Source: an uncultured bacterium
GTDB taxonomy: Bacteria > Hydrothermota > UBA3073 > NMUJ01 > CBEVQO01
Reading direction: 5' to 3'
NCBI GenBank assembly: GCA_965552055.1
Contig: CBEVQO010000001.1
Coordinates: 32,001-96,000 of the forward strand
DNA: 64,000 nt
Under the pieces are notes generated by a model. It was not told the DNA's origin. It saw only the letters and a list, made by a program, of their open reading frames with translations, and did no database searches. Shown one piece after another: positions 3,207 through 15,214 of this stretch (within the stretch, counting starts at the first letter, position 1; every line of letters begins with the position of its first letter). The translations under genes were made by a program, and so were the position numbers.

Positions 3207-4124
3207 ATGCGTTGCATTGTAACAGGAGGCGCTGGATTCATAGGATCACATTTAGTGGACGCTTTAATAGAGAGAGGTTATAAAGTTTTAATAATTGATG
3301 ATTTATCTACAGGTAAAGAAGAAAACATTAACAAAAAAGCGGAATTTGAAAAAATAAAAATCGAAGATGAAAAAATATTTGATATTTTAAAAAAATTCAA
3401 ACCAGATGCTGTGTTTCATTTCGCAGCTCAAATCGATGTAAGAAAATCTGTAAAAGACCCTCTTTTTGACACAAAAGTAAATGTGCTCGGTACTGTGAAT
3501 TTATTAAAAGCATCAGCTGATTGTAAAGTCAAATCTTTTATTTTTGCTTCTTCAGGTGGAGTTATTTATGGTGATGTTTTTGAACCTGCAAAAGAGAATC
3601 ATCCTGTAAATCCTCAATGTCCCTATGGTATCGCTAAATTATCGGGAGAATATTATGTGAAATTTTTTGGTAAAGAATATAGTTTCAAATGGGGTATTTT
3701 AAGATTTGCCAATGTTTATGGTCCCCGTCAGGACCCGAAGGGTGAAGCAGGAGTTTGTGCCATTTTCATCGGCAATATGATGAAAAAAAGACCTTGCAAA
3801 CTTTATGGATATGGTAAACTCGTTAGAGATTACATTTATGTCGAAGACGCTGTATCTTTAACTTTACAGGTTTTTGACAAAGGCGTATGCGATATTTTCA
3901 ATGCCGGAACAGGCAAAGGTACAAGTGTGATTGAACTTTTTAACATTTTAAAAGAATTTTTTGATTATAATATAGAGCCGATTCTTGAGGAAAAGCGTCC
4001 CGGCGAGCTGGAAAGTAATATTTTAAGTTATGAGAAAGCAAAAATATTACTTAATTGGAAACCTAAATATAGTTTAAAGGAAGGTCTCAAGAAAACTATT
4101 GAATGGTTTAAAAGAAGGTGCTAA
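3207..4124 (+). CDS. NAD-dependent epimerase/dehydratase (UDP-glucose 4-epimerase-like)
   Basis: TGGAGFIG, YGIAK (YxxxK), NVYGPRQDPKGEAGV. Confidence 0.92.
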   Translation: MRCIVTGGAGFIGSHLVDALIERGYKVLIIDDLSTGKEENINKKAEFEKIKIEDEKIFDILKKFKPDAVFHFAAQIDVRKSVKDPLFDTKVNVLGTVNLLKASADCKVKSFIFASSGGVIYGDVFEPAKENHPVNPQCPYGIAKLSGEYYVKFFGKEYSFKWGILRFANVYGPRQDPKGEAGVCAIFIGNMMKKRPCKLYGYGKLVRDYIYVEDAVSLTLQVFDKGVCDIFNAGTGKGTSVIELFNILKEFFDYNIEPILEEKRPGELESNILSYEKAKILLNWKPKYSLKEGLKKTIEWFKRRC

Positions 4125-4161
4125 AAAGTTATGTAATATTGATGATTTAGAAACGGGTCAT

Positions 4162-4204
4162 GGAGGGCGAAGCCCTCCGAAAAATCTGTGGGTGGGCGGG
4201 TGGG
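4162..4204 (+). repeat. GC hairpin plus G3 tract (REP-like element or terminator, with G-quadruplex motif)
   Basis: GGAGGGC-GAA-GCCCTCC at 4162-4178; GGGTGGGCGGGTGGG at 4190-4204. Confidence 0.55.
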
Positions 4205-4216
4205 ATAAAAATAAAG

Positions 4217-4243
4217 TTGACATTTTTGAAAAATGAGTATATT
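4217..4243 (+). promoter_or_regulatory. rnpB promoter TTGACA-N15-TATATT
   Basis: Ends 4 nt before the P1 5' strand of RNase P RNA. Confidence 0.75.
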
Positions 4244-4247
4244 AATT

Positions 4248-4521
4248 GAGTCGGGCAGGTGCGCTCGCCCGAAAGGGAGGAAAGTCCGGGCACCATGGTG
4301 GGCACCCGGGGTTAACCCGGGGGATGTGGCGCAATACACGCCACATCACGGAGAGTGCCACAGAGAGCAGTCAGCCCTTCGGGGCGATGGTGAAAGGGTG
4401 GGGTAAGAGCCCACCGGCCGGGCTGGAGACAGCCCGGTGCTCGGCAAACCCTGCCCGGTGCAAGGCGTTAGCCGCTTAGACGAATGAGCGCTAAACAGAA
4501 CCCGGCTTACCTGCCCGGCTC
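4248..4521 (+). ncRNA. rnpB: RNase P RNA (compact, type A-derived, 274 nt)
   Basis: GAGGAAAGTCCGGG and ACAGAACCCGGCTTA P4 motifs; P1 GAGTCGGGCAGG/CCTGCCCGGCTC; P2 GCGCTC/GAGCGC; AGTGCCACAGA and GGTGAAAGG/GGTAAGAG segments. Confidence 0.97.
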
Positions 4522-4531
4522 GTTTATTACT

Positions 4532-5020
4532 ATGAAAACCTTTATCTGTATCGGAACAAACATGGGAAATAAATTGGAAAACCTTAAAAAAGCTTTAAAA
4601 TTTCTACCAAATGTTAAAAGAATATCTCACATTTACGAATCAGAACCCCTTGGTCCTAAAAATCAACCTTATTTCCTGAATTGTGTTGCAGAAATTGACA
4701 CAAAGTTATCTCCAAGAGATTTACTCAGAATGTTAAAGTCAATCGAAAAAATCATGGGAAGGAAAGAAAAAAAGAGATGGGGACCCAGAATAATTGACCT
4801 TGATATCCTATTCTATGGAGATTTGATAATAAAAGAAAAAGATTTAATCATCCCTCATCCGGGAATTTCTGAACGCAAATTTTTCGTTTATCCTCTTTGC
4901 GACTTAATACCCGATTTTATACATCCTGAACTTAAAATAAAAATTTATGATTTAAAAAGGAGGCTTGATGCAAGTGGTTTTGAGTGTAAAAGATATGCAA
5001 GACCTTGCCTCCTCGTATAA
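4532..5020 (+). CDS. folK: 2-amino-4-hydroxy-6-hydroxymethyldihydropteridine diphosphokinase
   Basis: IGTNMG, QPYFLN, RWGPRIIDLDIL, PHP; start moved to ATG 4532 because ORF-track start 4484 lies inside rnpB. Confidence 0.95.
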   Translation: MKTFICIGTNMGNKLENLKKALKFLPNVKRISHIYESEPLGPKNQPYFLNCVAEIDTKLSPRDLLRMLKSIEKIMGRKEKKRWGPRIIDLDILFYGDLIIKEKDLIIPHPGISERKFFVYPLCDLIPDFIHPELKIKIYDLKRRLDASGFECKRYARPCLLV

Positions 5021-5831
5021 AAGAAGGGGGCAGAAAATCGGCTTTGTACCAACTATGGGATATTTACACGAAGGTCATCTATCACTTATAAGAATTGCAA
5101 AAAAAATGTCAGATGTCTGTGTCGTAAGTATTTTTGTAAATCCTTTGCAATTTGGTCCCAATGAAGATTTCAATGAATATCCAAGAGATTTAATGAGAGA
5201 TAAAGAATTACTCGAAAAGGAAGGTGTTGATATTTTATTTTTACCTGACGAAAGAGAAATGTATCCCATTGATTTTTGCACTTTTGTTGAAGTTGAAGGT
5301 TTGAGTGATGTCTTATGTGGCAAATACAGGCCTGGGCATTTTCGTGGTGTAACAACGGTTGTAGCAAAACTTTTCAACATAGTGAAACCTGACATTGCGG
5401 TATTTGGTGAAAAGGACGCTCAACAGGCAATAATAATAAAAAGAATGGTCAGGGATTTAAATTTTGATGTAAAAATAGTAACAGCACCTACTGTGAGAGA
5501 AGAAGATGGACTTGCCATGAGCTCAAGAAATACTTATTTAACACCCGAACAAAGAAAAGAAGCACCTGTGCTTTATAAATCACTTTTGCTGGCAAGAAAA
5601 TTAATCGAACAGGGAGAAAGAGACCCAGAAAAAATAAAAAAAGAAATGGAAAAAATGATAAAAGAGAATGCAAATTGTGAGATTCAATATATCGAGATTG
5701 TAAGAAAAGAAGATTTAAAACCTTTAGACAGAATCGAAGGCGAAGTTTTAATAGCGCTTGCTGCTAAATTCGGGAGGGCAAGATTAATAGACAACATAAC
5801 AGTAAAGGTAAATCAAGAAAAAGGAAGATAA
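4968..5831 (+). CDS. panC: Pantoate--beta-alanine ligase
   Basis: VPTMGYLHEGHLSL, FGEKDAQQ, GLAMSSRN, ARLIDN; GGAGG SD before ATG 4968. Confidence 0.97.
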   Translation: MQVVLSVKDMQDLASSYKRRGQKIGFVPTMGYLHEGHLSLIRIAKKMSDVCVVSIFVNPLQFGPNEDFNEYPRDLMRDKELLEKEGVDILFLPDEREMYPIDFCTFVEVEGLSDVLCGKYRPGHFRGVTTVVAKLFNIVKPDIAVFGEKDAQQAIIIKRMVRDLNFDVKIVTAPTVREEDGLAMSSRNTYLTPEQRKEAPVLYKSLLLARKLIEQGERDPEKIKKEMEKMIKENANCEIQYIEIVRKEDLKPLDRIEGEVLIALAAKFGRARLIDNITVKVNQEKGR

Positions 5832-14702: not shown

Positions 14703-15108
14703 CTCGCTCAGTTTTACCTATTTCGCCTTCTTCAAAAGAAACTTCAAGAACCTTTGAAAAAACAATTTGCGCTATCCTCATTCCTTTTTCAATTTTAAAT
14801 TTCTCTTTCCCAAAATTAAAAAGGATAACTTTTATTTCTCCCCTGTAATCTGGGTCTATTGTGCCCGGAGAATTCAATAGCCCTATCCCATATTTTGCAG
14901 CAAGACCACTCCTTGGTCGGACTTGTGCTTCAACATCGTTTGGAAGTTCTATCGCAATACCACATGAAACAACTGCATATTCACCTGGATTTAAAATCTT
15001 CTCTTCGACAGAAAAAAGGTCATAGCCGGCGGAATAAGGGGTTGCTCTTACAGGAATTTTTGCATCGGGGCAAAGTTTCTTAATCCGTATTTTTATCATT
15101 CATAATAG

Positions 15109-15180
15109 CGGCCCCAGCGGGAGTCGAACCCGCGCTTTTGGCTTGAAAAGCCAATGTCCTAACCGCTAGACGATGGGGCC
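15109..15180 (-). tRNA. tRNA-Glu(TTC), CCA not encoded
   Basis: Acceptor GGCCCCA/TGGGGCC; anticodon arm TTGGC-TTTTCAA-GCCAA; GGTTCGACTCC T arm; discriminator G followed by CTA. Confidence 0.95.
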
Positions 15181-15187
15181 TCCACTT

Positions 15188-15214
15188 ATATTATCCAAAA
15201 TGCCAGTTTGTCAA
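15188..15214 (-). promoter_or_regulatory. tRNA-Glu/dut promoter TTGACA-N15-TAATAT
   Basis: Read directly; ends 7 nt before the mature tRNA 5' end. Confidence 0.7.

Follow-up and report, generated by a model that had tools for sequence, protein, structure and literature searches.

The window, by which we mean the whole stretch of 64,000 nucleotides analyzed here, contains at positions 4248-4521 of its plus strand a genuine rnpB gene, the RNase P RNA gene of a WOR-3 bacterium. The RNA is 274 nt long (276 nt with one extra terminal pair) and aligned with the Rfam model RF00010 over model positions 1-367 at a score of 171.8 bits (gathering score, 100; E-value, 4.9e-55); within the clan, the class A model gave the best match. 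The GC content of the gene is 66% versus 36% for the genome, and its fold reached a z-score of -6.07 versus 200 shuffled sequences. When we searched the host genome with the RNA by blastn, the gene matched itself alone, and neither a second nor a split rnpB was found; it is thus present as a single copy. A predicted promoter on the same strand (4217-4243) precedes the gene and consists of TTGACA at 4217-4222, a 15-nt spacer and TATATT at 4238-4243, with a predicted transcription start at 4248-4250. Downstream, folK (11 nt past the 3' end of rnpB) and then panC follow at 4532-5831; no terminator was called in between, and rnpB may be co-transcribed with folK-panC.

The catalytic core of the RNA is intact. 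The helix map comprises P1 (12 bp; 4248-4259/4510-4521), P2 (6 bp; 4261-4266/4486-4491), a P3 of just 3 bp (4268-4277) and the active-site helix P4, whose 5' strand (4282-4290) pairs with 4501-4508 to form 8 bp with U4285 bulged. P5 (4291-4294/4457-4460) and J5/7 (4295-4299) border the specificity domain (4300-4456), which reads the tRNA elbow and is likewise complete: P7, a 6-bp P8, P9, P10, P11, P13 and P14 are all there, as are CR-II (4360-4366) and CR-III (4391-4395), while P12 is a 4-bp UUCG hairpin and P14 carries a GNRA loop (GAGA). J5/15 (CAA; 4461-4463) holds the equivalent of A248, a residue whose role is described in PMC9433436 (in part). J15/2 (4474-4485) contains CR-IV, and J2/4 together with CR-V occupies 4492-4508, so that the whole set from CR-I to CR-V is preserved. 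A preliminary description of this DNA had already reported the 3-bp P3, the short P12 and the retention of P13 and P14, and the helix map bears it out on each of these features.

What sets the RNA apart is the set of elements that it lacks. Between J5/15 and J15/2 there is only a residual P15 (4464-4473) of 3 bp (4464-4466/4471-4473) with a GUUA loop; the inner part of the P15/L15/P16/P17 region amounts to 4 nt compared to 46 nt in the RF00010 model, and the position of P18 in J15/2 to 0 nt compared to 24 nt. P19 is absent from the gene as well. J5/7 measures 5 nt versus 8 nt in relatives, indicating that both strands of P6 were lost, the 5' strand as well as the 3' strand. Since relatives show GGUA at the place of the GUUA loop, the latter looks like a remnant of the CCA-binding motif with one base changed. 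In the thermodynamic fold alone P15 had a pair probability of just 0.11; the support for this hairpin is comparative. The preliminary description had proposed an RNA without P6, P16, P17 and P18 and with no room for P19, in which P15 is a 3-bp hairpin that has no GGU in L15. The Rfam alignment, which is full-length and has the helices in question absent, the helix map and the 5-nt J5/7 agree with it throughout.

An assembly deletion or mis-binning that made the gene artificially short might be suspected, since our searches of WOR-3 bacteria found this layout in one species-level lineage only. A contig of run X1 covers positions 4000-4796 gap-free with 10 differences, which are confined to the flanking DNA and leave the RNA unchanged, and contigs of runs X2, X3, X4, and X7 as well as the metagenome contig L194 cross the short P15 (4464-4485) without gaps. 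The five bridging runs stem from five studies. Furthermore, two distant sites, J5/7 and the P16/P17 region, were lost together, and the gene is embedded in a contig of 495 kb. These data rule out a deletion during assembly, and we attach practically no probability to an artefact of either kind. Runs X2, X4, and X7 are labeled as hydrothermal vent and X3 as marine sediment; the host is presumably a thermophile. As to close relatives, a metagenome scan yielded one near-identical contig, and a search with RnpA one relative of 99% identity. A REP-like element (4140-4215; a GC hairpin with a G-rich tract behind it) is situated directly upstream of the rnpB promoter; it has 12 blastn matches in the genome, itself included, and other contigs from these runs contain similar stretches.

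With respect to its class, the RNA shares with type A RNAs (E. coli, Thermotoga maritima) the RF00010 score, P1-P5 with the bulged U of P4, CR-I to CR-V, P7-P14 with P13 and P14 kept, the lack of P5.1, P10.1, and P15.1, and a genome that encodes the partner RnpA. It differs from them in lacking P6, P16, P17, and P18, the first three of which belong to the definition of type A in PMC7191817 (in part), and the L15 GGU that pairs with the tRNA 3' RCCA, in whose place the loop reads GUUA. A type B RNA was considered and rejected, as neither J5/7 nor J15/2 offers room for P5.1, P10.1, P15.1, or P15.2. We would regard the RNA as type-A-like in its working, even though it falls outside the P6/P16/P17 definition of PMC7191817. 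Archaeal type M RNAs (Methanococci, Archaeoglobus; PMC4919922, in part) resemble it in their catalytic half, which is devoid of P6, P16, P18, and the P15 recognition loop; in contrast to them, it still has P8, P13, and P14, and its partner is the bacterial RnpA rather than archaeal proteins. The closest likeness in layout is found in diverged RNAs of the CPR/Patescibacteria, which lost P16, P17, and often P18 and the GGU (PMC8172020, in part); in this study by Lui, Nielsen and Arkin (2021), the GGU motif is missing in 23 of 35 CPR RNAs, and one lacks most of P15. Unlike the hosts of these, that of the present RNA is a WOR-3 bacterium with a 2.2-Mb genome; a protein encoded in a genome of its class is assigned by its source to candidate division WOR-3. 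The layout without P16, P17, P18, and GGU is hence already known, which limits the surprise that it holds. Bacterial losses of P6 have been multiple and independent (PMC12974513, in part), and the list of such losses among the 337 RNAs of that source may already include the layout described here. Our literature search, conducted mostly without subscription papers, returned no paper on WOR-3 RNase P and none that names this layout as a class.

The RNA of Candidatus Calescibacterium (L096), a non-CPR lineage, likewise has a 3-bp P15 and neither P16, P17, nor GGU, but retains P18. The RnpA matches of two Calescibacterium-type genomes (L285/G273 and L286/G274) contain internal stops. Type A RNAs of the Chlorobi lack P18, and those of the Aquificales reportedly do so too. 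The same is true for 12 of 12 same-class WOR-3 relatives, which keep P6, P16, and P17 and thereby differ from the window RNA. Across the WOR-3 relatives, P16 and P17 are kept in 28 of 28 RNAs; 26 of these have the L15 GGU and two, from one genus, have AGU. The latter two (L020 in G020 and L025 in G006) belong to the same class as the host and keep P16/P17; their AGU would mean that the motif for CCA pairing was also weakened independently elsewhere in this class.

A pattern for a short stretch from P15 to CR-IV matched one of 272 genomes of the phylum, namely the present one; with a wider gap, the same anchors recovered 24 of the 28 relatives. Among the 127 full-length rnpB matches from 151 phylum genomes searched, the window RNA is the shortest: by Rfam bounds it measures 278 nt versus 306 nt for the next shortest, which has P16/P17. 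For comparison, the Mycoplasma fermentans RNase P RNA is about 276 nt long. Outside the phylum the picture is different. The short-P15 pattern gave at least 119 matches in GTDB; the P5 pairing check was passed by 87 of the 119 listed, and 69 of the 119 form a simple P15 hairpin without P16, P17, and P18 (32 of 120 pattern rows were dropped at the P5 check, then 18 more that were not simple hairpins). The failures were mostly false matches to P18 loops (e.g., Alistipes), incomplete loci and Calescibacterium-type RNAs. Of the 69 simple-hairpin RNAs listed, 59 are labeled as Patescibacteria groups and 10 are unlabeled; a 3-bp P15 is present in 27 and L13 in 63. The first P15 pair varies among G-C, C-G, A-U, and U-A in the matches listed, in rows that are related and for which pairing was a selection criterion. 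Most of the CPR-type matches listed carry a hairpin insert in J5/7 that is missing in the window RNA; it is also missing in L144, whose element list equals that of the window RNA. With 276 nt, the window RNA is the second shortest of 58 measurable minimal-P15 lengths listed, surpassed only by L083 (265 nt), which also lacks P14; its 66% GC is a further difference from the CPR RNAs. The view taken in the preliminary description, that of an unusual reduced subtype near the lower size limit, thus holds for a reduced, type-A-derived RNA that is exceptionally short within its phylum but not for a subtype of its own, given the many similar RNAs among the GTDB matches listed.

The host genome, which is 97% complete, encodes RnpA within an rpmH-rnpA-yidD arrangement (TIGR00188, 62.3 bits; cut-off, 38.35); the protein is ordinary-looking and comprises 122 amino acids. 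The preliminary description had advised a search for HARP/Aq880, and no match to HARP (PF08745) was found in this genome; HARP as a back-up was rejected on this ground. In other WOR-3 families the situation differs. Family f4, of the same class (G005, G007, G009, G011, G013, G015, G017, and G019), has HARP in 8/8 genomes, rnpB and rnpA each in 0/8, and rpmH directly joined to yidD in 5/5; family f26 (G085-G087 and G089-G091) has HARP in 6/6 and rnpB and rnpA each in 0/6. Both families look HARP-only (loci L041-L045 and L275-L279), while families f12, f22, f29, and f30 contain both systems in most genomes. According to a 2025 study, the Aquificaceae are the sole verified HARP-only organisms (PMC12439589). 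With respect to 3'-end maturation, the RNase Z matches of 21 out of 22 genomes scored below the cut-off of TIGR02651, and two PF01743 nucleotidyltransferases (L226, 760-1962, minus strand, 400 amino acids; L227, 1336-2805, plus strand, 489 amino acids) may possibly represent split CC- and A-adding enzymes.

A substrate of the enzyme is encoded in the window itself: the gene for tRNA-Glu(UUC) (15108-15180, minus strand) reads CTA at positions 74-76, so that no CCA is encoded, and has a G at N-2. In the genome as a whole, CCA is encoded in 7 of 46 tRNA genes and not in the other 39. The preliminary description had viewed the loss of the CCA-binding loop as consistent with a tRNA-Glu that does not encode CCA. 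This property of the tRNA-Glu gene is confirmed, but the connection fails as an explanation because CCA-less genes prevail in GGU-keeping relatives too. Counted on the best 30 of 38-46 tRNA loci with 0-3 calls skipped in each genome, the GGU-keeping relatives G001, G018, and G024 encode CCA in 0/34, 2/30, and 1/32 genes, the AGU relative G020 in 4/31 and the HARP-only G005 in 4/30; the GGU-less Dojkabacterium G272 encodes it in 19 of 35 tRNAs. The idea that CCA-less tRNA genes brought about the GGU loss was accordingly rejected, as they do not separate genomes with GGU from those without it; in the WOR-3 genomes tested they are the background, which may permit the loss but does not predict it. 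In the host genome (G000), tRNA genes (and a tmRNA-Asn-Arg group) are arranged head to tail at distances of 0-1 nt (C1:199112-199416, C6:77207-77669 and other arrays), and in 10 cases a tRNA gene immediately follows another one.

Sigma-70-type TTGACA/TATAAT promoters with a 15-nt spacer are the norm in this genome, with 302 sites versus 8-54 for every other spacer from 10 to 23 nt. A scan restricted to 16-18-nt spacers missed most promoters, that of rnpB included; they were found once 14-15 nt were allowed. Spacers of tRNA promoters in relatives are 15-16 nt (G001), 16 nt (G024), and 17 nt (G005). A TTGAC..TAnnnT promoter was called at 20 of 36 stand-alone tRNA genes, 19 times with the 15-nt spacer; the one predicted for tRNA-Glu (15188-15214, minus strand; TTGACA, 15 nt, TAATAT) ends 7 nt upstream of the mature tRNA. 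Eighteen of the 20 end no more than 9 nt before the tRNA, and the median gap is 8 nt versus 9-17.5 nt in five relatives (p = 8e-5 to 0.035, for small samples and kin that are not independent). The transcription start can be calibrated by the ATG starts of long ORFs, which peak at the 6th nt past the -10 box (71 cases, then 33 and 19); in E. coli, the modal start is position 7 after the -10 box (PMC5730371, in part). Since the promoters adjoin the tRNAs and the start falls about 6-7 nt past the -10 box, the leaders of the tRNA precursors are predicted to be about 1-3 nt long, in many cases with a G at N-2 as their first nucleotide. Short leaders are predicted in relatives as well (9/16 in G001), so that the host genome represents a shift rather than a unique state. 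For the 302 promoters of the host genome, 123 long-ORF ATG starts lie 6-8 nt past the -10 box, which predicts a frequent occurrence of leaderless mRNAs.

Of the 36 stand-alone tRNA genes, 25 have the G at N-2 (p = 1e-12 at a background of 0.16), compared to 3/27, 8/29, 5/28, 9/31, 8/28, and 2/33 on the best tRNA loci of other genomes. Because 10 of the 16 stand-alone genes without a called promoter have it as well (p = 3e-5), a preference of the enzyme may add to this pattern. Species-specific leader preferences are common and were reported for 91% of 161 species (PMC4919922, in part). The pattern is not general to the RNA layout, since the Dojkabacterium G272, which has the same layout, prefers A at N-2 (22/33; called promoter at 1/33). 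Two explanations of the G(-2) were rejected. It does not track the J18/2 base (the equivalent of G332), as G018 has the same G and just 8/29 G(-2) on its best loci. An extension of the acceptor stem is equally unsuited: N74 is C or U in 23/25 genes with G(-2) and in 10/11 without, which reveals no link.

We consider it probable that the gene specifies the sole RNase P RNA of its host, derived from type A by loss of P6, P16, P17, P18, P19, and the CCA-binding loop, likely independently of the CPR bacteria, and that this RNA trims pre-tRNAs together with RnpA without CCA pairing. The RNA and RnpA would bind the tRNA elbow via CR-II and CR-III and measure the acceptor and T stems. The first pair would be stacked on the A248-equivalent of J5/15, N-1 and N-2 would be held against J18/2, and the cut would be made at P4; these roles of A248 and J18/2 are described in PMC9433436 and PMC10731613 (both in part). 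L8-P4, L14-P8, and the GC-rich helices could hold the two domains together; one of the two contacts L8-P4 and L18-P8 can in principle suffice for domain orientation (PMC8457005, in part), and L8 and L14 both remain in rnpB. Cleavage would precede CCA addition, which would leave L15 with little to bind. Transcription of many precursors would begin 1-3 nt upstream of the mature tRNA, frequently with the G at N-2, and cleavage would still be needed at the 10 tRNA genes directly behind another tRNA.

The same deletions are costly in E. coli: on a model substrate, removal of P15-17 exacted an almost 50,000-fold cost and deletion of P18 one of more than 3,000-fold (PMC5839562, in part). The rnpB RNA could therefore be weak, perhaps too weak to work with RnpA alone and dependent on an extra, unrecognised protein as the reduced archaeal type M RNAs are. 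Full loss of P16/P17 is indeed typical of archaea, where it is likely tolerated via extra proteins, and bacterial losses are often paired with added helices, of which rnpB has none (PMC12974513, in part); moreover, the predicted leaders of 1-3 nt would barely reach RnpA, which contacts positions beyond N-3 (PMC10731613, in part). We nevertheless regard an additional protein as unlikely, given the ordinary-looking RnpA and five other short-P15 genomes with an RnpA match, four of them over the cut-off and two with internal stops. Decay of the RNA is a very improbable explanation; in this case, most tRNAs would be transcribed with little or no leader, as in Nanoarchaeum (PMC10100707, in part), and RNase P would be becoming dispensable. 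It would suit the 7 of 20 promoters that end 7 nt before the tRNA, where the mature tRNA begins with the 8th nt and thus within the possible start range, the long branch of rnpB in the tree, and the same-class family f4 without rnpB and rnpA. However, the conserved regions and the helices are intact throughout, the strain with 10 flank changes has none in the RNA, and besides the 10 tRNA genes directly behind another tRNA there are 16 stand-alone ones without a called promoter. No HARP was found that could take over, whereas the family that lost rnpB does have HARP.

As to the origin of the layout, an independent loss of P16/P17/L15 is the likely and better reading, though an unproven one, since sequence identity, common helix features and gene neighbourhood point that way. 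Core identity of rnpB is highest to same-order RNAs (69-70%), compared to 53-66% for CPR-type rows; one Gemmatimonadota RNA is equally close (69.5%), and the high GC content may inflate such identities. The 6-bp P8 with its GNUAA loop and the long P9 are common to rnpB and the same-order RNAs, and P13 is identical in two of three of them. The folK-panC pair, which directly follows rnpB in the window genome, lies 1.2-3 kb from rnpB in 3/3 same-order genomes. Alternatively, the RNA was gained sideways from a Patescibacteria-type donor with a minimal P15 and replaced the native gene. The same layout is common in the Dojkabacteria-type RNAs among the matches listed, and metagenome and 272-genome phylum scans did not find a close relative with an intermediate form. 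In the tree, from which 10 of 75 rows were left out, rnpB is sister to the same-order RNAs with weak support (84/33) and a long branch (0.49); its placement within the Dojkabacteria-type clade was not rejected by an AU test (p = 0.52), and the constrained tree was better by 1.1 log-likelihood units. Against a transfer stand the core identities of 53-64% to 19 rows of this clade, the absence from rnpB of the clade's J5/7 insert and P10/P11 variant, the shared features of P8, P9, and P13, and the position of folK-panC near rnpB in same-order relatives; taken together, we judge it quite improbable. Under independent loss, P18 would have disappeared early, as in 12/12 same-class relatives, followed by P16/P17/L15 and the P6 5' strand in this lineage alone.

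The gene is a natural, GC-rich 274-nt counterpart of E. coli deletion variants whose ribozyme is severely impaired in vitro, and it therefore offers a ready test of how far a bacterial RNase P can be reduced in the absence of additional proteins. It also tests the need for CCA pairing when precursors have no CCA. A more far-reaching proposal, doubtful as it is, would be that a non-CPR bacterium of vents and sediments reduced the catalytic half of its RNA to a state like that of archaeal type M, with neither a helix nor an additional protein to make up for the loss, and that its tRNA genes co-evolved, their promoters having shifted closer so that precursors begin with a G about 2 nt upstream and are devoid of CCA. 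If this were true, the enzyme would work without both classic end contacts, CCA pairing and RnpA-leader binding, and the bacterium would represent an intermediate on the way to leaderless tRNAs like those of Nanoarchaeum, within a phylum where two other families exchanged the ribozyme for HARP. Within this one phylum, a stepwise series can be laid out from a full type A RNA over the loss of P18 and the loss of P6/P16/P17/L15 to the replacement of the RNA by HARP.

The phylum also harbors RNase P RNAs of the opposite kind, with lengths of 791 nt (L412 in G175) and 743 nt (L413 in G179). These two RNAs possess related long hairpin inserts in P9 and P12, and in G179 also in the P16/P17 region.
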